Positions 20,132 through 39,898 are shown, numbered from the stretch's first letter. The stretch: 64,000 nt of DNA from Burkholderiales bacterium (GCA_016192425.1 JACPUE010000066.1:99306-163305); one strand, 5' to 3'. Notes: generated by a model not told the origin, from the sequence alone. Numbers and translations are program-made.

Positions 20132-20160
20132 CTTGAAGAGGCGGTTGCGCGCACCCATCT
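20132..20160 (+). promoter_or_regulatory. candidate sigma-32 (RpoH) promoter of htpX
   Basis: CTTGAAG-N14-ACCCATCT versus consensus CTTGAAA-N13-15-CCCCATNT. Confidence 0.4.
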
Positions 20161-20210
20161 TCCGGGCTGGCGAAAGCACTTTCGCCTCTATATCTTCTTA
20201 TGGGAGTACC

Positions 20211-21092
20211 ATGAAACGTATCGTCCTGTTCCTGCTGACCAACCTCGCCGTGGTGGTGGTTCTTGGCATCGTGGCCAGCCTGCTGGGGGTCAACCGCTAC
20301 CTCACCGCCAATGGGCTGAACCTGGGCGCGCTGCTGGGCTTCGCCTTTGTGATGGGTTTTGGCGGCGCCATCATCTCGCTGCTCATGAGCAAGCCCATGG
20401 CCAAGTGGAGCGCCGGGGTGCAGATCATTGACGGCACACGCTCTGCCGACGAGGCCTGGATCGTAGAAACCGTGCGCAAGTTTGCCGACAAGGCGGGCAT
20501 CGGTATGCCCGAGGTCGGCATCTTCGAGGGTGACCCCAATGCCTTTGCCACAGGCGCGTTCAAGAACTCGGCCCTGGTGGCCGTGTCCACTGGCCTGCTG
20601 CAGAACATGACGCACGAAGAGGTGGAGGCCGTCATCGGCCACGAGGTGGCACACATCGCCAACGGCGACATGGTCACCATGACGCTGATCCAGGGCGTGA
20701 TGAACACCTTTGTGGTGTTCCTGTCACGCGCCATCGGCTACGCGGTGGACAGCTTTTTGCGCCGCGGCGACGACCGTGACAGCGGCCCTGGCATCGGCTA
20801 CATGGTCACCACGGTGGTGCTCGACATGGTGCTCGGCTTCCTGGCTGCCATCATCGTGGCCTGGTTCTCGCGCCAGCGCGAATTCCGCGCCGATGCGGGC
20901 TCCGCCCAGCTCATGGGCCGCCGCCAGCCCATGATCAACGCGCTGGCCCGCCTGGGCGGTGTGCATCCGGCCGAACTGCCCAAGAGCTTGGCTGCCATGG
21001 GCATTGCAGGGGGCATTGGCCAGCTGTTCAGCACCCACCCGCCCATCGAAGAGCGCATCGCTGCCTTGCAGAACATGCAGAACCAGGGCTGA
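20211..21092 (+). CDS. htpX: zinc metalloprotease HtpX (M48)
   Basis: [10 protein letters not shown] motif and four TM segments. Confidence 0.9.
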
Positions 21093-24460: not shown

Positions 24461-25552
24461 TCAACCATGCGGCAGCACCTCTACCCGCAAGGCCCGCTCC
24501 ACCGGTGTGATCTGCACCTGCACGGGCAGCCCGAGTGCAATGGTCTGCGCATTGGTCTGCGTGTGCGGCGTGGCCTCGGTGCAGGTGTAGCTGGCGGCCC
24601 GGCCGCTGCGCCACACCGCCAGGGCCAGCGGAAGCATCCACTGGTCGGCCAGGTGCGGGCCCAGTGCGCCTTGGCTGCGCTGGTAGGCGTGCACCTCATT
24701 CGCCAGCCGCTTGGCCACCTGCTCGGCCGACAGGCTGCGTTCGCCCAATTGGCAGAAGACTTCGGTGATGTGGGCGTGTTCCAGTGTAGCGATCAGTGCA
24801 TTGCCCGGTCCTTCGTTTTGGCGTGTCGGCGGTTGGCGCAACTGGCCTGCCTCGCACGTCCAGCCCATGCGCTGGCCCAGCGTTTCCAGCTCACGCGGAA
24901 CAATGCTGCGCGCCAGGCCGGGTGCCACGGCTTCGCACCAGGCGTTTTGCAGCGGGCCGCGTTCCATCACATCCACAGGGGCCAGCGGCTGCGCGGTGGA
25001 TAAGGGGGGCGTGATGTGCGCCACCAGCTCGCCACCCCCTGCAGGGAAGAAGCCGCGCCGCAGCAGTTGCAACTCCAGCCCCACGCCCAGCCGCCGCACC
25101 AGCGGGGCAAAGGCGCGCTCCAGAAAATCAAACGGCGGTGCCATCGGGTTGTGCGTGCCACCCAGCAACTGCACGCGGCTCTCGCCATCGGCCAGCATCA
25201 GCGCAGGCAGCACGGTCTGCAGAACCAGCAGGCAACTGCCCGCCGTGGCAATCTGAAAGCGGTAGTCCCCGCCCCGCACCGTGCCAGGCGTGAACTGCAG
25301 CGCTTGCGAGTTCAGCTCAGCGCCATCAGCCTGCCCGCCACACACGGCCGCCGCTGCCTGTACGCAGGCCAGGTGCTGCCGCATCAGCCCTGGCTTGGGC
25401 CGTCCGGCGCGGATGCGCGTAATGTGCAACGGCCGCCCGGTGACCATGGACAGGGCCAGGCCCGTGCGCAGGATCTGGCCGCCGCCTTCGCCGGTAGAGC
25501 CGTCGAGGGTGAGGGGGAGCATGTTGTGAGAGGGGGAAAGTGTCAGGTTCAT
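24461..25552 (-). CDS. rtcA: RNA 3'-terminal phosphate cyclase
   Basis: Aligns with E. coli RtcA (…[24 protein letters not shown]…RAGRPKPGL…). The start overlaps the upstream stop codon (TGATG). An alternative start 30 nt downstream is possible. Confidence 0.9.
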
Positions 25553-27378
25553 CAGCTCATGTAAAAAACGTCGCCATGGGGCGTGAAGGGCAAACGCCGT
25601 CCAGGAGCCAGCAGGTAGGCGTGCGGACGGCGCACGCTCAGGTGGTCGCAGTCGGCGTCGGTAATGATCAGCAGGGGGCCGTCCTTCGGAAAGTTCGTGC
25701 TGGTTTCCAGCAGTGTGATGGCAGGCTGCAGCATCGTGCCGCCACGGCCTTTGATTTCTACGCGGTGCGCGATGTCTTGCGCAAGCAGGTAGCCCAGGTC
25801 GTAGGGCGCCGCATCGCAGCACACCACGCGCACGGCGGGCACTTCCTTGGCCTCGGCATAGCTGGCGATGCTGCCCAGGGCCTTGGCCAGGGTGTGTTTG
25901 TCCATCGATCCAGAGGTGTCCAGCACCACGCCAAAGGTGCGTCCTTCCAGCCAGCGCGTGTCGGGCCCTGCATACGGGCGTGGAATGTCTGGCGTGGCCG
26001 ACTGGCGGCGGCTCAGCCGCGCATAGGTTCGGCGGGTTTCGATCGGTGGAAAGTGGTGGTCAAACCACCGCGCCAGCTCTACCTCCCACGGAACGGGCGG
26101 CTGCAATAGTGCACGGATTTCTTCCAGCAAGCCCTTGGGCAACAGGCCACGGCCTTGGGTTTCATGCAGCATCAGGCCTTTGCCCAACTGCTCTTTGTAG
26201 AAGGCATCCAAGTCGGTAAAGGGCGCTCGCTCAGTAGAAATCTTTCTGTCCAGCATGTCGCCTTGCCGTCCCGCCAGGGTTAGCAGCTTGCGCATGCGGC
26301 GCAGATCTAACACGATGCGGTCATACACTTCTTCCGCCGACAGGCCGCGCAGGTTCAGGTCGTGCAGTAGCCCCAGCGCAGGGGCGCTGCCCACTTGCAT
26401 CTGGATCAGCCAGTCGTTGATGACGTAGTCGCACGCCACGTTCCACAGATACGGGTCGCGCCCTTGCCGTCGGCCCATGTGCCGCAGTGCTACGTGCAGG
26501 ATTTCGTGTGCCAGCACAAAGCGGGTTTCCTGCTCGGTTAGCCCGGCAGCCGGGTTGAGGTAGATGATGCGCAGGGTTTCGTCCACTGCGCCGACCATGA
26601 TTTCCTCGCAGCGGCACAGTTCGGCGTCTTCCTGAATCTCGAAGGCCGCCACCATGGAACCTAGCAGTGGAAAGCTGCTGATAAACCAGCTGCGGGCACG
26701 CTCCGTCACGCTGCGGGGCATGCTGCGTGTGTCAGTACCCAGGGCTGTACGGGTGCCCGCTGCGATCTCCACCGCCTGTGAGACTGAATTGGCAATGCCT
26801 GCGGCAAACACTTCGCTCCAGCTTTGCTGCGATGACAGGACGCCATGGCGGACAGCAGGGACTGTCTGTTGGAGCCACGCATCTGGGGTTTCCAGGCTGG
26901 TGGCCTTGGGGCCTGCCAGCCCCAGGCCTTCGGCCCAAGTGGGCACGTCGGCTTCGCAGAACTGGCGGTACCAGCGGTCTTCATCCCACGCAGGCGCGTC
27001 GGCAGGCATCTGCATGTCTTGCGGGCATGCGCCGAACTTGACAGACGCCAGAAAGCGCGTGGTCACAACATCGCACGCTGCGCACCATGACGCCCAGTTG
27101 CCCCGGTCACTCTGGAACAGTTCCATGGCGTAGCTAAGTACACCTCGTGCCAACACGAAGGCCCATTCGGGGGCCGTGGCGTGGCGCTTGGGGTGCACAT
27201 GGATGGTGCCGCTCTTGAGCACCACAATCCAGCCTGCAGCAGGGCACTGGGATGCTGCAGTGCGCACCCAGCTTGCGCGCCGTGCCAGCGGGCCGAAGAT
27301 GGGGTGTGCGAGCACCATGGCCATGCCTGCTTCGTAGGCCTGGGTGGCAGGGTTGGTCTTGTGGTGGGGCTTGGCCAT
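25552..27378 (-). CDS. VWA-domain protein with an N-terminal HExxH metallopeptidase-like domain (DUF2201-like; predicted MoxR partner)
   Basis: Carries an HEILHVALRH motif. C-terminal MIDAS motif VVLDTSGSM. 608 aa. Confidence 0.7.
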   Translation of the reverse strand: MAKPHHKTNPATQAYEAGMAMVLAHPIFGPLARRASWVRTAASQCPAAGWIVVLKSGTIHVHPKRHATAPEWAFVLARGVLSYAMELFQSDRGNWASWCAACDVVTTRFLASVKFGACPQDMQMPADAPAWDEDRWYRQFCEADVPTWAEGLGLAGPKATSLETPDAWLQQTVPAVRHGVLSSQQSWSEVFAAGIANSVSQAVEIAAGTRTALGTDTRSMPRSVTERARSWFISSFPLLGSMVAAFEIQEDAELCRCEEIMVGAVDETLRIIYLNPAAGLTEQETRFVLAHEILHVALRHMGRRQGRDPYLWNVACDYVINDWLIQMQVGSAPALGLLHDLNLRGLSAEEVYDRIVLDLRRMRKLLTLAGRQGDMLDRKISTERAPFTDLDAFYKEQLGKGLMLHETQGRGLLPKGLLEEIRALLQPPVPWEVELARWFDHHFPPIETRRTYARLSRRQSATPDIPRPYAGPDTRWLEGRTFGVVLDTSGSMDKHTLAKALGSIASYAEAKEVPAVRVVCCDAAPYDLGYLLAQDIAHRVEIKGRGGTMLQPAITLLETSTNFPKDGPLLIITDADCDHLSVRRPHAYLLAPGRRLPFTPHGDVFYMS

Positions 27379-27385
27379 GATGCAT

Positions 27386-28450
27386 TCAGGTGGTCTTGGC
27401 CTGTCGTTCCACCAGGCGCGGAAGGTCGCGTACCACTTCGATCATGTACCAGGCAGGCAGCGTTTGTCCGGACTCTTCGGCCACGGCAATTTGGGCCATC
27501 TCCAGGCTGATCTGGGCCAAGTCTTTTAACATGGCTTTGGATCGGTGTACCAGTGCCTGTAGCTCGCCGGTGCTCGTGTTCTTGTCCCGCGGCAGGGCCT
27601 TGAGCAGCCGGGCACGAAACGCCTGTGCCAAGAAGTACAGCACGTCGCGGTCCTCGGGTGCGTGGGGCCAGCGGGCATCGCCCTTGAAAATGGCTTCCAG
27701 ACGGTGCCGGTCTGCCGCCAGCTTGCCAAAGGCTTTGAACTGCGCTGCATGCTGGGGCGTGAGGCAGCCATGGGCCATGGCTTCCACCATCGAGGTGGGT
27801 GGCGCGTCGCCAAACGCATGCAGCGCATCGCTGAGCATGTGCCACGAGCGAGGCGTGGAAAACGGTTCCTCATGCTTGGGCGGAGCGCTCCACAGGTGAT
27901 CCGGGCGCTGCTGCAGGTACTCCAGCACCATGGGATGGATGGCGTTGGCCGTGGCCCAGTTCAGCCATTCCGAGGCCGATACCTTCATGTGCACATGCAC
28001 CATGCGGTTCATCAATGCCGACGACATGGGTTTGACGATAGCGGAGTCTTGCGCCCGGTTGCCTGCACCGATCACGATAGAGCCTTCAGGCAGCGTGTAT
28101 TCGCCCACGCGGCGGTCATGAATCAGGCTATAGAAAGCCTTTTGCACATCCTGGGAGCATGCGTTGAGCTCGTCTAGAAAGATGCAGTAAGGCTCCTTGC
28201 GCGCAATCATGGCGGGTGGGCAAAAGCGGCTCACGCCGTCGAGGATCTGGGGCACGCCCATCAGATCCTCAGGGGCCAACTGGCTTCCCAGCAGGGAGAC
28301 ACACTCCAGCCCTACGCTGCGCGCGAACTGCTCTACCAGAGCCGACTTGCCAACGCCTGGAGGGCCCCAGATGAATACGGGGCGGGTGATGGCAACGTTC
28401 AGCAGGAATTCGGTGAGCTGCGAAGGCGAAAGCGCGTGGACGGTTTGCAT
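27386..28450 (-). CDS. MoxR-like AAA+ ATPase
   Basis: Walker A GPPGVGKS. Walker B IFLDELN. Confidence 0.8.
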   Translation of the reverse strand: MQTVHALSPSQLTEFLLNVAITRPVFIWGPPGVGKSALVEQFARSVGLECVSLLGSQLAPEDLMGVPQILDGVSRFCPPAMIARKEPYCIFLDELNACSQDVQKAFYSLIHDRRVGEYTLPEGSIVIGAGNRAQDSAIVKPMSSALMNRMVHVHMKVSASEWLNWATANAIHPMVLEYLQQRPDHLWSAPPKHEEPFSTPRSWHMLSDALHAFGDAPPTSMVEAMAHGCLTPQHAAQFKAFGKLAADRHRLEAIFKGDARWPHAPEDRDVLYFLAQAFRARLLKALPRDKNTSTGELQALVHRSKAMLKDLAQISLEMAQIAVAEESGQTLPAWYMIEVVRDLPRLVERQAKTT

Positions 28451-28481: not shown

Positions 28482-29312
28482 TCAGCGGTGGTAGCGCAGC
28501 ACAGTGTCGTGCAACAGCGCATCCAGCGTGGCGTGACTGGGTACGGGCAGTGGCTGCACAGGCTCGGCCGCATTGCGGGCCAGCTCGGCTTCGATAAAGG
28601 CATGGATGCCGGACCAGCGGGGGCTGGTGGCAGCCTCGTCGGCGCGCATCTTTATCTCCAGCAGTGCGTTGATCTCATCGACCAGCGCAGCGTCGTGCAC
28701 GGGGTGCAGCGTGTGCTGGGCCAGCTCGGCAAAGCGCATGGGCGGCACGCCGGGTTGCGTGCGGATCCAGCGTGCGGCCAGCAGCGGGCGCAGCACGTAC
28801 AAGTACTTTTTGTAGCGCACCTCGTCAGCTTGCAAATGCTCGCGGAAGTTCTTCTTGGCCATGGCCGCGTAGTGGTGCCAGCCCTTGGCGTTGGAGAACA
28901 CCTGCGCCGCCAGCGTGCGGAACTGCGCCATCGTGTCACCCTCTTCGCGGTACACGATGGGCGAGCCCAGCCATTCGAGCAGCGTGGGGTTGGATTCGCG
29001 CAGCAGCCCCAGCGCCTTGCGCAGGTCCCAACCGTTCACATCCAGGTCCCCACTGATTGGCAGCTCGATCACATCACGCCCCGGCGCAATGGTCAGGTAC
29101 CAGGGCAGCCGGTGCACGTAGATAAAGCGCACGTCGTAGTCGCTGTCGGGTGAGGCAAAGCCCCAGCCCCGGCTGCCAGATTCGCAGGCGAAGAGGACTG
29201 TCACGCCGTGCGTGGACTCGATGCGCTGCAGCTCCTGCATCACCTGTGCGCGCATGTGGGGCTCCACCGGGTGGGAGGAGCGCAGCATTTCCTGTTGGTC
29301 TGTTTTTTGCAT
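28482..29312 (-). CDS. DNA polymerase beta-superfamily nucleotidyltransferase of the RNA-repair-associated family
   Basis: GS…D.D motif (ACESGSRGWGFASPDSDYDVRF). Confidence 0.65.
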   Translation of the reverse strand: MQKTDQQEMLRSSHPVEPHMRAQVMQELQRIESTHGVTVLFACESGSRGWGFASPDSDYDVRFIYVHRLPWYLTIAPGRDVIELPISGDLDVNGWDLRKALGLLRESNPTLLEWLGSPIVYREEGDTMAQFRTLAAQVFSNAKGWHHYAAMAKKNFREHLQADEVRYKKYLYVLRPLLAARWIRTQPGVPPMRFAELAQHTLHPVHDAALVDEINALLEIKMRADEAATSPRWSGIHAFIEAELARNAAEPVQPLPVPSHATLDALLHDTVLRYHR

Positions 29313-29317
29313 AAAAT

Positions 29318-29365
29318 GAGCTGTATCGCTTGTTGGATAAGCGCTTGAAGCTATCAAAAGTGTAG
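29318..29365. repeat. AT-rich motif, inverted pair (intergenic, between rtcB and the nucleotidyltransferase gene)
   Basis: GAGCTGTATCGCTT-GTTGG-ATAAGCGCTTGAAGCTATCAAAAG. Confidence 0.7.
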
Positions 29366-29408
29366 TGAGCCAATAGTGCGGTGCTGTCACCAGCGCCGCA
29401 CAGGGCGG

Positions 29409-30632
<1,224 letters not shown>

Positions 30633-30661
30633 ATCGTTTTTTCGTTCTTTCGTTTTTTTGT

Positions 30662-31402
30662 TCATTGAACCATTCCGCGCGCTGCGGCCTGGGCGTAGGT
30701 TTTCAGTTCATCGTCGTTCTTCACATTCCGGATGAAGGCATCCATGCGTGCCTGCAGTTCACCAGGGCGGTTCAGGTGCACTCCCTCGTGCCCGATCCCA
30801 TGCAACGCCGATACCTGTGCTTCGCGCCAAGGCATGGCCAGCATTGCGCAGAACACCTGCCACATTGCGTCGCGCCATTCGGGGATGTGCTTGGCATTCC
30901 AGAACGTGGGCCACACGTCAAACCACATGTAGCTCACGAAGTACAGCCGATCGCTTCGGCTTCCGATGGTGTTCGGCGCGGTGTCCAGGCGCGGGCCCAG
31001 GCAGTCGCGCCATAAAGTGGGCAGGGCCTGCACCATGCGCATCGCGTCGGCCAGGGGCACGGAAGGGTCGTTCACCATGTGCGGGATGTCTCCCGCGTTG
31101 TTGCTCATCACATGGTTCAGGCCCATGCCGACCTGATCGTCGCTGTAAGGCGCCAGGTCCGTTCCCGCATTGGCGAACAGCACGGTCTGGACGTGCGTCC
31201 ATTGCAGCGGCGTGGCTTCGAACTCCGGCTCGTCGATCAGCCAATACCACTCCTGCCCGCTCTTGTCGGGCACGGGGCGGTCGAACAGGTAGCGCAGGGC
31301 CGCGCTGTAGACCGCTGGATCCAGGCCGACAGATGCGCACGTGGCGGGTGTGGTGTCCCGCTGCAAACGCTTTTCTCTTGCAGTTGGTTTTTTGTTCTTC
31401 AT
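30662..31402 (-). CDS. hypothetical Trp-rich protein; no recognisable family
   Basis: 246-aa ORF directly upstream of rtcB on the same strand. Coding-like codon usage. Confidence 0.5.
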   Translation of the reverse strand: MKNKKPTAREKRLQRDTTPATCASVGLDPAVYSAALRYLFDRPVPDKSGQEWYWLIDEPEFEATPLQWTHVQTVLFANAGTDLAPYSDDQVGMGLNHVMSNNAGDIPHMVNDPSVPLADAMRMVQALPTLWRDCLGPRLDTAPNTIGSRSDRLYFVSYMWFDVWPTFWNAKHIPEWRDAMWQVFCAMLAMPWREAQVSALHGIGHEGVHLNRPGELQARMDAFIRNVKNDDELKTYAQAAARGMVQ

Positions 31403-31429: not shown

Positions 31430-32572
31430 TCAGCGCATTTTCACCAGGCCATTGAGCACCTGATCCAGGCCGCCAAACACCGAGATCTTGTCGATCCGCT
31501 CGGCCACGCGCTCCAGCGTCTCCAGCTCCTTCATACGCAGGGCGACGGGGTTGTCTTCCATCACCTTGGCGGTGTTGAGCAGCGAGCGCGTGGCGGCGGT
31601 TTCCTCGCGGCGGCGGATCACGTTGGCCTCGGCCTGTTTCTGGGCCTGCACCACCTGGGTCAGGATGGTTTTCATCTCGCCGGGCAGCACGATGTCCTTC
31701 ACGCCCACGCTCTCCAGCTGCATGCCATAGGGCTGCAGCTTGGCGGCCATGTGCGCGGTCACCACCTCGTCGATCACCGTCTTGTTCTCCAGCAACTCAT
31801 CAAGCGTGCGGGTGCCCACGGCGGCGCGCAGCGCAAACTGCAGCTCGCGGTAGAGGTGGTCGGCAGGCTTTTGCAATTGGGCAAAGGCGCGCAGCACATC
31901 GGTGTAGCGGTAGGTGGCGCACAGGTTCAGGCGCAGGCTTACCTTGTCGCGGGTCATGATGTCCTGGCCCGATACCTCTACGGCTTGCAGGCGCAGATCC
32001 ACCAGCTCCACGGCGACGGTGCGGCCGTACTTCCAGAAGGCGTAGGTGCCTGCGGTCAGCAGGCGCTCGACCTTGCCGTCCACCGTCAGCAGCGCGCACT
32101 GGCCTTCGGGCACTTGCACCTGCAGCACGCCGGTCAGGCCCGTCACCGCACGCTGGCGCAGTTGGGTTTGGGTCAGGCGCGCCACCAGGTCGGCGGGCAG
32201 TTCGGCGCCCGCTTGCAGGTCCACCACCTGGACGGTCACCTGGACCAGGCCCTTCCAGTACAGGCGGCGGGTGCCAGGGGGCAGGATTTCCACCAGCACA
32301 CCGTTCTCGCTGCGCAGGCCCACTTCGGTTTCCGACAGATTCACCTGCACAAACTCGGCAGCCACTACGGCGGGCTCCTGCGCCATCAGGTACTCGGCCA
32401 GGCCGTGGGTGAAGGCGGGTTGTTCCAGGGCGAAAGTCTCCGCACGCAACTGATCCATGCCTGCAAACAGCCAGTAGGTGCCGCTGTGCAGCACGCGGTC
32501 AAAGCTGCCATTGCGCAGCAGCAGGGCGCGTTCGTTCTTTTTCACCGTGGTGCGTTGGAACAACTTCAGCAT
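31430..32572 (-). CDS. SPFH/Band-7 (stomatin-like) domain protein with a long N-terminal extension
   Basis: C-terminal SPFH signature …GVKDIVLPGEMKTILTQVVQAQKQAEANVIRRREETAATRSL…. Confidence 0.7.
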   Translation of the reverse strand: MLKLFQRTTVKKNERALLLRNGSFDRVLHSGTYWLFAGMDQLRAETFALEQPAFTHGLAEYLMAQEPAVVAAEFVQVNLSETEVGLRSENGVLVEILPPGTRRLYWKGLVQVTVQVVDLQAGAELPADLVARLTQTQLRQRAVTGLTGVLQVQVPEGQCALLTVDGKVERLLTAGTYAFWKYGRTVAVELVDLRLQAVEVSGQDIMTRDKVSLRLNLCATYRYTDVLRAFAQLQKPADHLYRELQFALRAAVGTRTLDELLENKTVIDEVVTAHMAAKLQPYGMQLESVGVKDIVLPGEMKTILTQVVQAQKQAEANVIRRREETAATRSLLNTAKVMEDNPVALRMKELETLERVAERIDKISVFGGLDQVLNGLVKMR

Positions 32573-32786: not shown

Positions 32787-32822
32787 CCAAAAAAACGCAA
32801 CCCTGGGGCCGCTCCCCGCGTT
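32787..32822 (-). terminator. rho-independent terminator / attenuator between the ncRNA and the rtc operon
   Basis: On the minus strand: AACGC-GGGGAGCGGCCCC-…GCGTT followed by TTTTTTT. Confidence 0.55.
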
Positions 32823-33125
32823 CGGCGGGTGGTCTTTCGACCGGTACTTCCAATCAAGGTCTTGCGACCGTGGGCAGGAATCGAACCTGCGACAGACCCC
32901 TTGCGGGGGTTGCTCTACCAGACTGAGCTACCAGTGGTGACACGCCTGGAGTCGCACCGGGCACGTCCTTTCGGAGTGGCTACTGCAGCCGTGCCGTTAT
33001 CCAGCGCTTGCGGTGTGCGGCATGCAGGGCATCGACAGGGACCGAAGGCCCCGGACTTCCGGCACCGGCGGGGCGGACTTCTGTCCCAACCCCGGCCTGT
33101 GAGCGGTCACCGCTTGCGCTGGATG
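32823..33125 (-). ncRNA. Y-RNA (YrlA)-like non-coding RNA containing a tRNA-like module, transcribed from a sigma-54 promoter
   Basis: No credible ORF. GC-rich and highly structured. Contains a canonical D-arm and T-arm (see the 32868–32945 feature). Confidence 0.4.
32868..32945 (-). other. tRNA-like module (canonical D-arm and T-arm, non-canonical anticodon region, imperfect acceptor pairing)
   Basis: Minus-strand read: …CCACTGG-TA-GCTC-AGTCTGGTA-GAGC-A-ACCCCCGCAAGGGGT-CTGTC-GCAGG-TTCGATT-CCTGC-CCACGGT…. Confidence 0.5.
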
Positions 33126-33136
33126 CCTTGTCTATT

Positions 33137-33152
33137 GCCAGATGCGTGCCAG
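33137..33152 (-). promoter_or_regulatory. sigma-54 (-24/-12) promoter
   Basis: Minus-strand sequence TGGCACGCATCTGGCA versus consensus TGGCACG-N4-TTGCA; only one mismatch in the -12 element. Confidence 0.6.
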
Positions 33153-33281
33153 GTGGGTAGCCAGGGTGCCGCGAACTCATAACTTGTTGATTTGTATTGA
33201 TAAAAATCTGAATGCGCGGATGTTTTAGTTCATGGGTTATGAAAATACTAGAATTAAAGCTAAATAAATAGATTGATTTCC

Positions 33282-34910
33282 ATGCGCAAAAACAAGGTGG
33301 TGATCGGCTTTCTGGGCACGCAGCTCGACTCCGGCCGGGGCGCGGGGCGGTGGGAGAAGTGGCGCCCCACCGTGTCGCTGGTGCAGCACGAAGACGTGGT
33401 GATCGATCGGCTGGAGCTGCTCTACACCCTTGCGCACCAAGACCTGGCCCAGCTCGTGCAGGCCGACATGGCCATTGCCTCGCCCGAGACCACGGTGAAC
33501 CTGGTGCCCATGCCCATTGCCGACCCGTGGGACTTTGGCGAGGTGTATGCGCAGCTCTTTGATTGGACGCAGGCCTACCGCTTCGACACCGAGCGCGAGG
33601 AGTACTGGACGCACATCACCACCGGTACGCACGTGGCGCAGATCTGCCTGTTCTTGCTGGTGGAGTCGCGCCGCATTCCGGGCGTGCTGGCGCAGACTTC
33701 GCCCCCGAAGCGCCAGCAGGCGGGCGACCCCGGCAGCATTGCGCTGATCGACCTGGACCTCTCGCGCTACGACGTGATTGCCCAGCGCTTTGGTGCAGAG
33801 CAGCGCGATGCGGTGCAGTTCTTGAAAAGCGGCATCGCCACGCGCAATGCGCGCTTCAACGCCCTGATCGACGAGGTGGAGCGCGTGGCCGTGCGCTCGC
33901 GCGCACCCATCCTGTTCACCGGGCCAACGGGTGCGGGCAAGTCGCACCTGGCGCGGCGCATGTTTGAACTGAAGAAAGCCCGCCACCAGGTGGCAGGCGA
34001 ATTCGTCGAAGTGAACTGCGCCACGCTGCGCGGCGACGGCGCGGCATCCACCCTGTTCGGCCACAAGAAGGGCGCCTTTACGGGTGCGGCGGCCGACCGG
34101 CCCGGCCTGCTGCGTGCGGCGCACCAGGGCGTGCTGTTCCTCGACGAAATAGGCGAGCTGGGCCTGGACGAGCAGGCCATGCTGCTCAAGGCCGTGGAAG
34201 AAAAGCGCTTTTACCCCATGGGCAGTGACCGTGAGGTGGAGAGCGACTTCCAGCTGGTAGCAGGCACCAACCGCGACCTGCGCACCGAAGTCGCGGCCGG
34301 GCGCTTTCGCGAAGACCTGTTTGCGCGCATCAACCTATGGAGCTATGTGCTGCCCGGCCTGGCGCAGCGGCCCGAAGACATTGAGCCGAATGTGGACTAT
34401 CTGCTCACGCGCGTCGCCGCCGAGCTGGGCGGCGCGGTGCGATTCACCAAAGAAGCCAAGGCCGCGTACCTGCGCTTTGCCACGGGCCCCGAGGCCCTGT
34501 GGAGCGGCAACTTTCGCGACCTGGCCGCCAGTGTGACCCGGCTGGCCACGCTGGCAGAAGCAGGCCGCATTGGCGAATCGCTGGTGCAGGCCGAAGTGGC
34601 ACGGCTGCGCTGGCTATGGCAGCCGCAGGGCGCGGGGGCAGCCGCTGCACCCGATGGCGAAGCGGCGCTGCAGGCCTTGGTGGGTGCCGCTGCGTGGGAT
34701 GCCATGGACCTGTTTGACCGCCTGCAACTGCAGGCCGTGGCCGGGGTGTGCCAGCGTGCGCGCAGCCTGTCGGATGCCGGGCGGGTGCTGTTCCAGGCCT
34801 CGCGCACGCAGCGCTCCGTGGTCAACGATGCAGACCGGCTGCGCAAGTACCTGGCGCGGTTTGGGCTGACGTGGGAGCAGGTGGCGCAGTCGATGGCCAC
34901 GGCCGAGTGA
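33282..34910 (+). CDS. rtcR: sigma-54-dependent transcriptional regulator RtcR (CARF–AAA+–HTH)
   Basis: Collinear with E. coli RtcR from MRKNKVVIGFLGT… through …NDADRLRKYLARFGLTWEQV. Carries a GAFTGA motif. Confidence 0.9.
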   Translation: MRKNKVVIGFLGTQLDSGRGAGRWEKWRPTVSLVQHEDVVIDRLELLYTLAHQDLAQLVQADMAIASPETTVNLVPMPIADPWDFGEVYAQLFDWTQAYRFDTEREEYWTHITTGTHVAQICLFLLVESRRIPGVLAQTSPPKRQQAGDPGSIALIDLDLSRYDVIAQRFGAEQRDAVQFLKSGIATRNARFNALIDEVERVAVRSRAPILFTGPTGAGKSHLARRMFELKKARHQVAGEFVEVNCATLRGDGAASTLFGHKKGAFTGAAADRPGLLRAAHQGVLFLDEIGELGLDEQAMLLKAVEEKRFYPMGSDREVESDFQLVAGTNRDLRTEVAAGRFREDLFARINLWSYVLPGLAQRPEDIEPNVDYLLTRVAAELGGAVRFTKEAKAAYLRFATGPEALWSGNFRDLAASVTRLATLAEAGRIGESLVQAEVARLRWLWQPQGAGAAAAPDGEAALQALVGAAAWDAMDLFDRLQLQAVAGVCQRARSLSDAGRVLFQASRTQRSVVNDADRLRKYLARFGLTWEQVAQSMATAE

Positions 34911-35306: not shown

Positions 35307-35368
35307 CGCATGCGTGCGTTAGTGGCATGGCTTGTGATCGAGTCATCCCTGCAAGAAAGGAGTGCATC

Positions 35369-36325
35369 ATGACGACGCGCTCAATCGAACACGTGGCGGC
35401 AATGCACTCGTTGCCGCTGCTGCGCTACCCGCGCACGCCCCATCTGGAGGGCTCGCGTCACCAAAGCGGTGATGCGCCCGATGTACAGCCGCTGGCCCCG
35501 TTGGTGGGACAGCATGCAGTCATCGAGGAAAAAATGGATGGTGCCAACTGTGCGCTGTCGTTCACCGAAGGGGGCGAGCTGTGCCTGCAGTCGCGCGGGC
35601 ACTACCTCACGGGTGGCGCGCGAGAGCGGCAGTTTGCGGCGCTGCACCCTTGGGCACGCGTGCACGAAGCGGCTTTGCTGGCCTGCCTGCAAGACCGCTA
35701 CGTGCTGTATGGCGAGTGGATGTTCGCCAAGCACGCCATGTTTTACGACCGGCTGCCGCACTACCTGCTCGAATTTGACGTGTGGGATCGCGTGGAGCAG
35801 TGCTTTCTGTCCACACCACGGCGCCATGCGTTGCTGGCAGGTTTGCCGGTGGTGTCGGTGCCTGTGGTGTATGAGGGGGCAATGCCTGCACGGGCGGAGT
35901 GGCTGTGGTCGTTGGTGGGGGCTTCGCTGGCGCGCACGCCGCATTGGAACCAGACGCTGGACGATACCGTGCAGCGTCTGCAGTTGCCGCTGGATTTGTG
36001 CCGACAGCAAAGCGATCCGTCGTCACTGGCTGAAGGGCTGTATGTGAAGCTGGAGGATACGCACCAGGTGCTGGCACGGTTCAAGCTCGTGCGCTGGGAC
36101 TTTGTGCAACACATTCTGGATTCGGGCTCGCACCACAGCGAACGGCCCGTGGTACCCAATGCGCTGGCAGCGGGGGTGAACCTGTATGCCCCTACGCTGA
36201 ACGTGCAATGGGCGGACATGGGGCTGCACCGCGTGCTGGGGCTGGAGGCGCTGCAAGCGCACCATGCCCAGTGGGCCGCGGTGCAGCGCACACAGAAAGG
36301 AGGTGCCCTATGGCGCCGCAAATGA
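35369..36325 (+). CDS. ATP-dependent RNA ligase (Rnl family)
   Basis: Nucleotidyltransferase motif I (EEKMDGANCAL). N-terminal YPRTPHL. RBS AAAGGAG. Confidence 0.75.
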   Translation: MTTRSIEHVAAMHSLPLLRYPRTPHLEGSRHQSGDAPDVQPLAPLVGQHAVIEEKMDGANCALSFTEGGELCLQSRGHYLTGGARERQFAALHPWARVHEAALLACLQDRYVLYGEWMFAKHAMFYDRLPHYLLEFDVWDRVEQCFLSTPRRHALLAGLPVVSVPVVYEGAMPARAEWLWSLVGASLARTPHWNQTLDDTVQRLQLPLDLCRQQSDPSSLAEGLYVKLEDTHQVLARFKLVRWDFVQHILDSGSHHSERPVVPNALAAGVNLYAPTLNVQWADMGLHRVLGLEALQAHHAQWAAVQRTQKGGALWRRK

Positions 36326-37500
36326 TGGAGGCAGCGCCGTATGCGGTGCTGCGGGGGCTGGTGCCGGCCCCTCACCAGCTACTGGACTGGGCCGCGTGCT
36401 GCGAGGCTATCGGTGCGCTACGCGCACTAGATACGACGCCGCAGGATCCGGTGCACCATGCCGAAGGAAATGTGGGAACGCACACGCGCTGGGTGCTGGA
36501 GTGCCTGCGCGAGGATGCCTACTTTCAGCAGGCCGCGTCCGATCGGCAGTGGGTGATGTTCATGGCGGCTTTGCTGCACGACATTGCCAAGCCTGCCACC
36601 ACGGTGGTGGACGAGGCCACGGGGCGCATTCGCCAGCCGGGGCATTCCAGCCGTGGGGCAGTGGATGCCCGCGTGCTGCTGTGGGTGGCTGGATGCCCGT
36701 GGGCGCTACGTGAGGCGGTATGCCGCTTGATTGCGGTGCACCAGCAGCCGTTCTTTGTGTGGCACTCGCACCAAGGCGTTGCGCCCGAGTATGTGGTGCG
36801 CAAGCTGTCGTGGGGGGTGTGCTGGGCTGAGTTGCTGGCACTGGTACGGGCCGACATGCGCGGGCGTATTTGCCAGGATCAGCAGCGCCATCTGGACGAC
36901 CTGCAACTGCTGGAAGAGCTGGTGCGCGAAGAAGGCGCGTGGGAGCGGCCTCGCCCCTTTGCAGACGCGCATACCGCGCTGCGTTACTTCAGGGGTACCA
37001 ACCTGTACCCCATGGAGCCGCTGTATGCCAGCCCTGGCTCGACCGTGACGGTGATGTGCGGCCTGCCAGCGGCGGGCAAAAACCACTGGGTGGCCAGGCA
37101 CCGACCGCATTGGGCGGTAGTGTCGTTTGACGACGTGCGCGAGGCATTGGGCCTGGCGCATGGCGACAACGAGGGGCAGGTAGCGCACCACGCACAGGAG
37201 CAGGCGCGCGCCTTGCTGCGGGCGCGGCAGCCGTTTGTGTGGAATGCGACACACCTGTCGCAGTCCATGCGCGACAAGACGCTGGATCTGCTGTATGCCT
37301 ACGATGCGCAGGTCGAGATCGTGCACCTGGAGCAGCCGCTGCCCGAACTGCTGCGGCGCAACCACCGGCGCGACACCACGCTGACCAACGCGGCCCTGCT
37401 GCGCATGCTGCACCGCTGGGAGGCCCCGTGGCCGACCGAGGCGCATCGCGTGGTATACGAGGGAGGCAATACAGCGCCAGCGGGAAATCGCGTACGGTAA
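36310..37500 (+). CDS. HD-domain phosphoesterase fused to a P-loop polynucleotide kinase (HD-Pnk-like end-healing enzyme)
   Basis: HD motifs (…HHAEGNVGTHT…LLHDIAKP…). Walker A GLPAAGKN in the C-terminal half. Overlaps the ligase stop codon. Confidence 0.7.
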   Translation: MAPQMMEAAPYAVLRGLVPAPHQLLDWAACCEAIGALRALDTTPQDPVHHAEGNVGTHTRWVLECLREDAYFQQAASDRQWVMFMAALLHDIAKPATTVVDEATGRIRQPGHSSRGAVDARVLLWVAGCPWALREAVCRLIAVHQQPFFVWHSHQGVAPEYVVRKLSWGVCWAELLALVRADMRGRICQDQQRHLDDLQLLEELVREEGAWERPRPFADAHTALRYFRGTNLYPMEPLYASPGSTVTVMCGLPAAGKNHWVARHRPHWAVVSFDDVREALGLAHGDNEGQVAHHAQEQARALLRARQPFVWNATHLSQSMRDKTLDLLYAYDAQVEIVHLEQPLPELLRRNHRRDTTLTNAALLRMLHRWEAPWPTEAHRVVYEGGNTAPAGNRVR

Positions 37501-38664: not shown

Positions 38665-38709
38665 CCAACGCTTATGGAATAAGCGCTGGCAGCTATCATT
38701 TTTGAAATT
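38665..38709. repeat. AT-rich motif, inverted pair (intergenic, just 3' of rnpB)
   Basis: CCAACGCTTAT-GG-AATAAGCGCTGGCAGCTATCATTTTTG. Confidence 0.7.
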
Positions 38710-39898
38710 CTTGCGGGCAATGTGGCGCCTGCCCCTGCTGCAGCGCGCGGGCGCGCTCCACGGTGTCGGGGTGGCTGCTCAGCAGCGACCAGATCGGGTG
38801 CGCGGCCTCGGCGCGGCCCTGTTTTGGGGGCGCGGGCTGGCTGGCGCCGGGTGTCTTGCCCTTGCCTTCCTCTTCTTCGTCCTTGTCGTGCGCAATGGCC
38901 AGCAGCAGCGTGCCCATGGGCGCGGTGGGCAGGGCGGTGTGGCGCATGAGGCCGATGGCGAAGCAGTCGGCCTCGCGCTCGTGGTTGCGGCGGTAGTGCA
39001 GGCCGGTGAGCAGTGCGCTGCCCGTGGACAGCACGCCCGACACATCGCCCAGCGCCAGCCCCAAGCCCATTTGCAGCACGCCTTGCTCCACCACCATGCG
39101 CGTGGTGTGGCGGTGCACCACATGGCCGATTTCGTGCGCCAGCACGCCCACCAGCGCGTCGTCGTCCAGGCCCTGCCGGGCGGCGCTTTGCACCAGGGCG
39201 TCGGTCATCACCACCTGCCCGCCGGGCAGGGCGAAGGCGTTGGCGGGCATGCCGGAGCGGAACTCCAGCCGCAGCCGCGGCGCGTAGCCGGGGTAGCGCT
39301 GCAGCGCAGGCGGAATCTGCAGTGCCAGCGCATCAAAACGTGCACGCAGCTGGGCCTGGCGCTCGGGCGGCAGCTTGCTGGGCTTGAGCAGGCCATCGTC
39401 CATCTGCTGCAGGCCCTGGTCGGCCAGTGCGGTTTCCCAGCCCACAGGCACCCAGTGCGTGAGCTGCGTGGCCATCCACGGTGTGCCGTAGCGGTAGAAC
39501 AGGGTCAGCCCGATGGCGGCGGCCAGCAGCGCCGCCAGCAGCACGCTCCAGCGCGTCTGCATGTGCTGCGCCAGGCCGGGGCGTGCGCCCGCGGCGGCCA
39601 GGGCGGCGTGCCAGGCGGGCACGGCGTCAATCTCCAGGCTGCCGTGGTCGCGCAGGTCCACCACCACGCGCGCCTGGGGGCGGCGCGCGTTCCAGGCCTC
39701 GGGCCAACCCACGTCCTGGTGGGCAAACACCACCGGCGCCACGCCCGGCGCCGACAGCGGATGCAGGCTCAGCGACGGCCCCCGGGCCGTGGGCTGCAGG
39801 CCCACCAGCACCGGTCGAGCCTGGCTGCTGCGCCCATCAAACCAGTGCCCCGGCAGCAGGTCGCCGGGTGCGTTGGTGGATTGGTGAGAGCTGTTCAT
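38696..39898 (-). CDS. M48-family metallopeptidase
   Basis: HEIGHVVHRH motif with a downstream glutamate. Confidence 0.8.
   Translation of the reverse strand: MNSSHQSTNAPGDLLPGHWFDGRSSQARPVLVGLQPTARGPSLSLHPLSAPGVAPVVFAHQDVGWPEAWNARRPQARVVVDLRDHGSLEIDAVPAWHAALAAAGARPGLAQHMQTRWSVLLAALLAAAIGLTLFYRYGTPWMATQLTHWVPVGWETALADQGLQQMDDGLLKPSKLPPERQAQLRARFDALALQIPPALQRYPGYAPRLRLEFRSGMPANAFALPGGQVVMTDALVQSAARQGLDDDALVGVLAHEIGHVVHRHTTRMVVEQGVLQMGLGLALGDVSGVLSTGSALLTGLHYRRNHEREADCFAIGLMRHTALPTAPMGTLLLAIAHDKDEEEEGKGKTPGASQPAPPKQGRAEAAHPIWSLLSSHPDTVERARALQQGQAPHCPQEFQK

Follow-up and report, generated by a model that had tools for sequence, protein, structure and literature searches.

A stretch of DNA of 64,000 nucleotides (nt) from a Burkholderiales bacterium (GCA_016192425.1, JACPUE010000066.1:99306-163305), which we call the window, carries on its minus strand an rtc RNA-repair operon with a two-gene pair set inside it. 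One gene encodes a MoxR-like ATPase; the other encodes a protein of 608 amino acids (aa) that is, almost certainly, a pseudo-zincin joined to an active zincin (DUF2201_N) and a VWA domain with its metal ion-dependent adhesion site (MIDAS; DUF2201). The pair is a self-contained two-gene module of an ancient, very strongly conserved family. It is repeatedly but facultatively associated with RNA-repair genes, by which it was captured independently several times, and it is an optional accessory of rtc operons, not a core or conserved component of them. That a genuine functional link joins the pair to RNA repair we consider probable. Our overall reading, held tentatively and with somewhat less than even confidence, is that the pair is a protease module, ATP-dependent and targeted by its MIDAS, that has been captured time and again by RNA-repair islands.

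The ATPase and its zincin partner

The initial annotation of the window had placed a MoxR-like ATPase and a zincin/VWA protein inside an rtc operon, and that is where they lie. The two genes, and the domains and motifs of the second, are as follows.

28450..27386, minus strand: AAA_5-type MoxR-like ATPase, 354 aa, with its ATG at 28450
27378..25552, minus strand: 608-aa zincin/VWA protein; the end coordinate includes the stop codon
26734..27378, minus strand: N-terminal domain, residues 1-215, a duplicated, catalytically dead zincin core
27150..27115, minus strand: ARGVLSYAMEL, the equivalent of HExxHxxxxH in the N-terminal copy
25996..26706, minus strand: zincin-like metallopeptidase domain, residues 225-461
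26508..26479, minus strand: HEILHVALRH, residues 291-300
25555..25941, minus strand: VWA domain, residues 480-608, with a complete MIDAS
25920..25906, minus strand: DTSGS, residues 487-491 (D487-x-S489-x-S491)

How well are these features conserved? To answer this we draw on a pair-centred scan that took one genome per species and gave 566 confirmed loci, 80 of which were examined with 10-kb flanks (1.43 Mb in total). Individual loci are cited by number, as L001 and so on.

The Walker A (GPPGVGKS, residues 29-36) and Walker B (FLDELN, residues 91-96) motifs of the ATPase are intact in the window and conserved across the related loci; with both motifs in place, the enzyme is predicted to be catalytically competent. 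It scores 51.1 bits on Pfam AAA_5, well above the cutoff of 22, while AAA_3, which is MoxR proper, and bpMoxR stay below their cutoffs (19.2 and 24.4, each against 27). The accurate label is ‘MoxR-like, AAA_5 type’. Across 13 sequences, drawn from the Proteobacteria, Actinobacteria, Firmicutes, Cyanobacteria, Chloroflexi, Acidobacteria, Planctomycetes and Spirochaetes, the mean column identity is 76%, which is unusually high. The closest solved relatives by sequence are the AAA modules of Midasin (E about 1e-13); at E<=1e-3 the PDB sequences yielded only Midasin and other AAA modules, with no match to RavA, CbbQ or NorQ. NCBIfam has no specific model for the ATPase or for its partner.

GenBank lists a hypothetical protein of a Burkholderiales metagenome-assembled genome (MAG) that is 100% identical to the partner. 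Residues 227-461 match PF13203, DUF2201_N (‘putative metallopeptidase’), at 75.6 bits against a cutoff of 23.2, and residues 484-576 match the VWA-like PF09967, DUF2201, at 28.0 bits against 26.4. The same two domains are found in the precomputed annotation of its homologues, which GenBank describes as ‘DUF2201 family putative metallopeptidase’ or ‘VWA-like domain-containing protein’. In a model of the protein made with AlphaFold2 (AF2) from an input of 18 diverse homologues, the mean predicted local distance difference test (pLDDT) score is 79, and three well-defined domains are separated by low-confidence linkers. Residues 225-461 have the zincin fold, and the C-terminal domain has the Rossmann-like fold of a VWA domain. 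The initial annotation, which had described a protein of this length with HEILHVALRH and a C-terminal MIDAS and would have fallen had either fold been missing, is thus borne out by the motifs, by domain scores above the Pfam cutoffs and by the folds.

The four residues H291, E292, H295 and H300 are invariant in all 80 loci. H300 is presumably the third zinc ligand, and the domain is predicted from its sequence to be an active peptidase. Around the HExxH there are weak matches to M48 and M78 peptidases. The sequence profile of the protein matches the minigluzincin selecase MJ1213 across a strand and the HExxH helix, and a search of PDB sequences with that profile gave this short selecase match only. 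Selecase and its fellow minigluzincins proabylysin and projannalysin belong, with 3e11, Wss1, Spartan and IrrE, to the minimal zincins; in contrast to these, the zincin core of the window lies within a protein of 608 aa, in tandem with a dead duplicate and fused to a VWA domain. In the latter domain, T548 and D574 complete the MIDAS begun by D487, S489 and S491, and all five residues are invariant (80/80). The domain is structurally akin to the MIDAS domains of NorD and MDN1. Inspection of the sequences of the pair by eye revealed no obvious signal peptide or membrane segment, and the 608-aa partner is predicted to be cytoplasmic.

What, then, is the extra N-terminal region, put at about 200 aa in the initial annotation? 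It is present, at about 215 aa, and it is no new sensor domain but a degenerate duplicate of the peptidase domain. With hhalign, residues 51-143 align to residues 264-358 of the same protein with a probability of 96.7% and an E of 3.6e-10, and in the AF2 model, of which the N-terminal domain is the most confident part (pLDDT 90-98), helices and strands follow one another in parallel order in the two copies. The catalytic Glu is found in the N-terminal copy of none of the 80 loci. In 62 of them the copy reads H-[C/A/G/N/S]-x-x-H-x4-H, and in the clade of the window all three His are lost as well. The domain has invariant residues of its own. Searched alone against 1.84 billion representatives, it matched about 216 clusters (at 50% identity), with many proteins matching twice, and all of these clusters have the architecture of about 600 aa or are fragments of it. 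The form H-[C/A/G]-x-x-H-x4-H without Glu resembles the motif of the YbeY RNase. In most members of the family, the clade of the window excepted, the N-terminal copy might retain a metal-dependent activity other than that of a peptidase.

Distribution of the pair and its linkage to RNA repair

The 608-aa protein has more than 4,000 database matches at E<=1e-5. Among the best 120 of these, nearly all are full-length at about 600 aa and come from many phyla, and a few are fragments of about 370-415 aa. In 76 of the 80 loci the ATPase gene lies directly upstream of the 608-aa homologue, and the exceptions are at contig ends or interrupted; the pairing of the two genes is obligate. Neighbours were counted by tblastn because a simple open reading frame (ORF) caller gave shadow ORFs in high-GC DNA; it missed the VWA ORF in 10 loci. 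When the neighbouring ORFs of the 80 loci were clustered, no conserved third or effector gene emerged. The largest neighbour cluster was RtcB.

Within 10 kb of the pair, RtcB is found in 14 of the 80 loci, Band7 in 11, RlaP in 10 and RtcA in seven. Since there is roughly one rtcB per several megabases of genome, we would, on our own rough estimate, expect well under one such neighbour by chance. The linked loci belong to at least six clades, with different RtcB subfamilies and different gene orders. Mapped on a neighbour-joining tree built from 83 VWA proteins, RtcB linkage calls for no fewer than nine Fitch state changes, or about eight once a short-contig artefact at L002 is allowed for. The RNA-repair neighbours also include RtcR, Ro60/TROVE and Tpt1.

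Linkage takes a different form in each group. In the Comamonadaceae and Lautropia, the neighbours are RtcR, Band7, RtcB, RlaP and RtcA. An unclassified proteobacterium (L007) has the pair with Ro60/TROVE. Two Paenibacillaceae (L027 and L042) have Tpt1, RlaP and TROVE, together with an RtcB on the opposite strand that is 32-35% identical to that of the window. Ammoniphilus (L052) and a member of the Desulfatiglandales (L074) are RtcB-linked, and two Clostridia (L059 and L066) have a same-strand operon in the order MoxR-VWA-TROVE-RtcB-WYL/WCX regulator. In place of RtcR, a WCX (WYL-associated) protein with a conserved partner of 270-334 aa is found in L059 (15071-17423), L066, L042 and L052, which suggests that the Firmicutes loci have a different regulator for the same gene set.

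If RNA-repair genes recur beside the pair, does the pair recur beside RtcB? A metagenome scan with RtcB as the query gave 593 confirmed loci, of which we examined the best 80, with an RtcB 71-93% identical to that of the window. These supply several of the points that weigh against our reading. Only two of the 80 close-RtcB loci (L093 and L099) have the pair. In L082, where RtcB is 93% identical, the order is RtcB-RlaP-RtcA, with a spacer of 50 nt at the position of the pair; from such close relatives without the pair it follows that RtcB and RtcA do not need it in order to function. About 80% of pairs have no RNA-repair neighbour and lie in variable surroundings. For phage homologues, a virion-assembly role unrelated to RNA has been proposed (PMC7824862). 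In the AF2 model the geometry between the domains is uncertain, with a predicted template-modelling (pTM) score of 0.49. Finally, the substrate of the family, its protease activity and the contact between ATPase and partner are features that we infer. The check on co-conservation with RtcB proposed in the initial annotation thus has a divided outcome: linkage recurs when one starts from the pair, and is rare when one starts from close relatives of RtcB. The same is true of the proposal that the pair provides a step in RNA repair, for which there is RtcB linkage in at least six clades, but no place for the pair as a conserved rtc component.

One of the two close-RtcB loci with the pair deserves separate description. 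L099 (10001-15212) has RtcB, a MoxR-like ATPase (56% identity), a long-form DUF2201 protein (39% identity) and RtcA, without RlaP. It seems that the pair was acquired here a second time, independently, and at the same place in the operon. Elsewhere, in L094 (11309-16015) and also in L095 and L098, different cassettes fill the RtcB-RlaP-RtcA intervals; they encode a treble-clef zinc-finger protein, a protein of metallo-beta-lactamase fold and a 788-aa protein without a Pfam match. Accessory genes seem to have a hot spot here.

Could the pair have come to the operon merely by chance, as a selfish or hitch-hiking cassette functionally unrelated to its neighbours? Its presence varies among close relatives, and the other cassettes just described occupy the same interval. 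A cassette of this sort would hardly recur independently in at least six clades, however, nor would its start and stop codons be coupled to those of the neighbouring genes, and at the borders of the pair neither mobility genes nor repeats were noticed. We find this explanation scarcely credible.

A more substantial alternative is that the pair is an autonomous housekeeping or stress module for proteolysis or chaperoning, with a target unrelated to RNA, and is co-regulated with the rtc genes through a shared stress such as translation damage or attack by phages or toxins. That the pair stands alone in about four-fifths of loci among unrelated neighbours, that it is optional among close RtcB orthologues, and that its ATPase is so extremely conserved across phyla as to suggest a universal target independent of rtc, all speak for such a module. 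Yet repeated independent capture by RNA-repair loci exceeds what simple co-regulation would bring about, and the same-strand arrangements in L059, L066 and L099, together with the coupled junction in the window, join the pair to RNA-repair genes more closely than a shared stress response demands. On balance we judge an autonomous module somewhat unlikely.

Might the pair instead belong to biological conflict, as the initial annotation implied when it mentioned an abortive-infection-like response? It would then be an effector akin to the vWA-MoxR ternary systems, in which a MoxR-vWA sensor releases a protease that kills or arrests the infected cell. Conflict systems of the vWA-MoxR type do exist and occasionally carry metallopeptidase effectors (PMC7159879); moreover, cyanobacteria, myxobacteria, Paenibacillus and Ktedonobacteria are well represented in the 608-aa family, which also has homologues in phages. 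Against this, the third component of the ternary systems (VMAP, beta-propeller or FtsH-like; Kaur et al. 2020) was not found in the 80 loci, nor was any other conserved third component or a defence-island context. A search of PADLOC-DB v2 gave only faint domain matches for the ATPase, at E>=2e-3 and so none passing E 1e-3, and no match for the 608-aa protein. The bpMoxR score, as given above, falls short of the Pfam cutoff, and conservation as high as that of this family is atypical of fast-evolving immunity genes. A role as a conflict effector is very improbable, and the earlier suggestion is without support.

The operon and its surroundings

The genes described above lie within a run of minus-strand genes, from about 24.4 to 33 kb, that forms one operon-like block in a window of high GC content (about 62-70%). 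The order of the operon is tRNA-like RNA, Band7, an orphan, RtcB, RlaP, the MoxR-like ATPase, the 608-aa VWA-peptidase and RtcA, and the divergent gene for RtcR lies beyond its upstream end.

33273..34910, plus strand: RtcR, divergent sigma-54 activator with an RtcR/CARF-type N-domain (PF06956, 269 bits; Sigma54_activat, 165.6 bits)
32572..31430, minus strand: SPFH/Band-7 protein, the first protein-coding gene of the operon (PF01145, E 1e-31)
31402..30662, minus strand: orphan of 246 aa between Band7 and RtcB, with a 4-nt overlap with the rtcB start
30665..29409, minus strand: rtcB, RNA ligase, 418 aa (PF01139, E 9e-129)
29390..28482, minus strand: RlaP nucleotidyltransferase, directly upstream of the pair (PF10127, E 6.9e-93)
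25552..24461, minus strand: rtcA, RNA 3'-phosphate cyclase, 363 aa, last in the operon (NF003246, 385.5 bits against a cutoff of 352; PF01137)
25550..25554, minus strand: TGATG junction, in which the stop codon TGA of the 608-aa gene and the ATG of rtcA share 1 nt

RtcB, RtcA and a divergent RtcR, the marks of an RtcR-regulated rtcBA operon, are all present. From the RlaP stop to the ATPase start there are 31 nt, and from the ATPase stop to the start of the 608-aa gene only 7. The latter gene is translationally coupled to rtcA through the 1-nt overlap of stop and start, in agreement with the initial annotation, which had also set the pair between the ligase and the cyclase genes. It does lie in that interval, between rlaP and rtcA and not directly after rtcB. 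In the rtc operons of P. fluorescens and P. aeruginosa, RlaP is likewise found between RtcB and RtcA (PMC12776372). The rtc operons described from E. coli, Salmonella and Pseudomonas differ from that of the window in having no ATPase/protease pair.

A sigma-54-like sequence, TGGCACGCATCTGGC, with one mismatch, lies in the intergenic region at 33151..33137 on the operon strand; matches of this kind are not rarer in the whole window than chance would have them. A scan for sigma-70 promoters within the operon found none. The orphan has no match in Pfam, NCBIfam, PADLOC or PHROGs, and is kept (68-91% identity) only in the closest operons, those of the Acidovorax type (L001, L003, L004, L083 and L093). 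The Band-7 protein has a weak similarity to HflK/HflC. In uniting an AAA+ motor with an HExxH zinc peptidase and an SPFH/Band-7 protein, the operon recalls FtsH with HflK/HflC. Unlike FtsH, however, the motor and the peptidase of the window are separate polypeptides, of AAA_5 and minimal-zincin type rather than classic AAA and M41, and no membrane anchor is evident in the pair. Because Band7 follows the occurrence of RtcB and not that of the pair, we give this echo little weight.

Between the sigma-54-like promoter and Band7 lies a tRNA-like element (32866-32938, minus strand), with counterparts in L001 (3972-4033), L003 (2315-2376), L005 (4332-4393) and L018 (4920-4993). The Rfam tRNA model gives it 37.4 bits, with a match confined to model positions 5-66, and ARAGORN annotates it as ‘tRNA-Cys’. 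The D and T arms are conserved and the anticodon stem has compensatory changes, but the stem is capped by a GAAA/GCAA-type loop of 4-5 nt instead of an anticodon loop of 7 nt. Since the acceptor stem is unpaired, this is no functional tRNA. Burroughs & Aravind reportedly described SPFH/Band-7 modules with a novel tRNA-like RNA, to which the element may correspond. Such an RNA could be a scaffold or a decoy substrate. On the minus strand at 32797-32812, a terminator-like hairpin with a T-run (GCGGCCCCAGGGTTGC GTTTTTTTGG) follows the element at a distance of about 55 nt and precedes Band7 by about 220 nt; it may set the tRNA-like RNA free as a small transcript of its own, or serve as an attenuator. 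In L072 (13272-17095), a Phycisphaerales MAG, an array of 28 tRNA genes is found 1.5-5.5 kb downstream of the VWA-peptidase gene and is followed by a Band7 gene.

Directly downstream of rtcR, on the plus strand, are genes for an ATP-dependent RNA ligase (35327-36325; PF09414, E 1.6e-32) and for a 430-aa protein with an AAA_33 P-loop kinase domain (36208-37500). Together they look like a second RNA-repair cassette, of the 5'-phosphate type, in which case the region from 24.4 to 37.5 kb would be an RNA-repair island. On its distant flanks are two genes for M48-family peptidases (20133-21092, plus strand, and 38696-39898, minus strand), both probably unrelated housekeeping genes.

Relatives of the pair and a proposed mechanism

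Phages have the same two families in the same order. Against PHROGs, the ATPase matches phrog_1297 at E 4e-73, and the partner matches phrog_1314 at E 6e-46 over residues 234-580 only. A tblastn search of phages returned 212 records at 23-31% identity, nearly all short-form and mostly from N4-like podophages and jumbo phages. In phage Pollock the two genes are annotated ‘N4 gp24-like ATPase’ and ‘N4 gp25-like metallopeptidase’. Genes of the N4 gp24/gp25 type are core genes of N4-like phages, of unknown function (PMC4193335), and Iyer et al. described a MoxR-vWA chaperone/co-chaperone pair of jumbo phages with an N-terminal metallopeptidase (PMC7824862). The phage proteins differ from the bacterial long form in being short, at about 370-400 aa, without the N-terminal pseudo-zincin, and their setting is one of middle genes rather than of RNA repair. 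A full-length homologue in a phage collection (MT835968, ‘UNVERIFIED’) was set aside as probably bacterial DNA; it is a stand-alone pair without RNA-repair genes.

Among cellular systems, CbbQ-CbbO, NorQ-NorD, RavA-ViaA and CoxD-CoxE are the nearest parallels. They are activases or maturation factors, and their partner proteins, unlike that of the window, have no peptidase domain. In Midasin (Rea1), which has no protease, six AAA modules form one giant polypeptide, homologous to the pair at the level of the superfamily only. It acts in the assembly of eukaryotic ribosomes, and by extension the bacterial pair may act on ribonucleoproteins (RNPs).

RtcB is a metal-dependent ligase. Might the pair then be an activase or assembly chaperone for RtcB, or for Band7 or an RNP, comparable to NorQ-NorD, CoxD-CoxE or CbbQ-CbbO? 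In that case it would load metal into RtcB or reset the inhibited enzyme, taking the place of archease, and the peptidase would have a minor part or serve autoprocessing. In favour of this are the metal dependence of RtcB, the resemblance of the VWA domain to NorD and the fact that characterized MoxR-VWA pairs are maturation or activation factors (PMC3893208). But an activase has no need of peptidase residues that are invariant in 80 of 80 loci, RtcB is absent from the vicinity of most pairs, and the pair is absent from most RtcB operons. We regard an activase as quite improbable.

How might an ATP-dependent, MIDAS-targeted protease module work? If CbbQ-CbbO, NorQ-NorD, RavA-ViaA and Midasin are a guide, the ATPase would form a ring, and the MIDAS of the partner would dock on an acidic residue, supplied by either a target protein or the ring. 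Hydrolysis of ATP would pull on the target or remodel it, and the fused zincin would cut it. Given that the adaptor carries a live zincin, a split AAA+ protease is the simplest model. In the setting of RNA repair, its likeliest task would be to strip off and degrade a blocking protein, after which RlaP, RtcA and RtcB could reach the RNA ends. Candidate targets are a protein bound to or trapped on a broken tRNA or rRNA within a ribonucleoprotein, and a ribotoxin or other offending ribonuclease. The pair would thus be an accessory that widens the conditions under which repair can take place, and not an obligatory step. That it specifically clears a protein obstacle in this manner is, on our analysis, possible though rather doubtful.

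The same reasoning can be carried further, to a protease that clears RNPs and parallels Midasin or the removal of adducts by p97 with SPRTN/Wss1. The broken ends of a tRNA or rRNA would be freed, by extraction and cleavage, of proteins that occlude them or are trapped there covalently, and this would gate the access of RlaP, RtcA and RtcB. If that were so, the strong conservation of the family would reflect a universal target in the translation apparatus. We think this version distinctly unlikely.

How much of this is new? The Pfam families, the pairing of MoxR with a metallopeptidase-vWA protein in phages, and rtc operons with RlaP, Ro60 or Band7 are already known. Full-text literature searches for RtcB together with MoxR, vWA or AAA+, whose scope did not extend to the survey of Burroughs & Aravind (2016), did not find the arrangement, and Hughes et al. 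(2020) and the RlaP preprint do not mention the pair in rtc operons. In the searchable literature DUF2201 appears only in an unrelated gut meta-omics study. The recurrent, independent embedding of the pair in RNA-repair loci, the tandem of dead and live zincins and the optional status of the pair therefore appear to be new to that literature, although the association may already be contained in the 2016 survey. The pair is a good and testable lead, one that will not surprise specialists in MoxR-vWA systems or in RNA repair.

The tandem of dead and live zincins is a clean example of a pseudo-enzyme domain kept beside its active paralogue. RtcB and RtcA are widespread, and their accessory factors and physiological substrates are still debated. 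A module of motor and protease that is found again and again beside RtcB, Ro60, RlaP and Tpt1 suggests that the removal of protein can be a step in RNA repair. Because the pair belongs to the core of N4-like phages and occurs across hundreds of bacterial species, a function assigned to it would annotate a large family.

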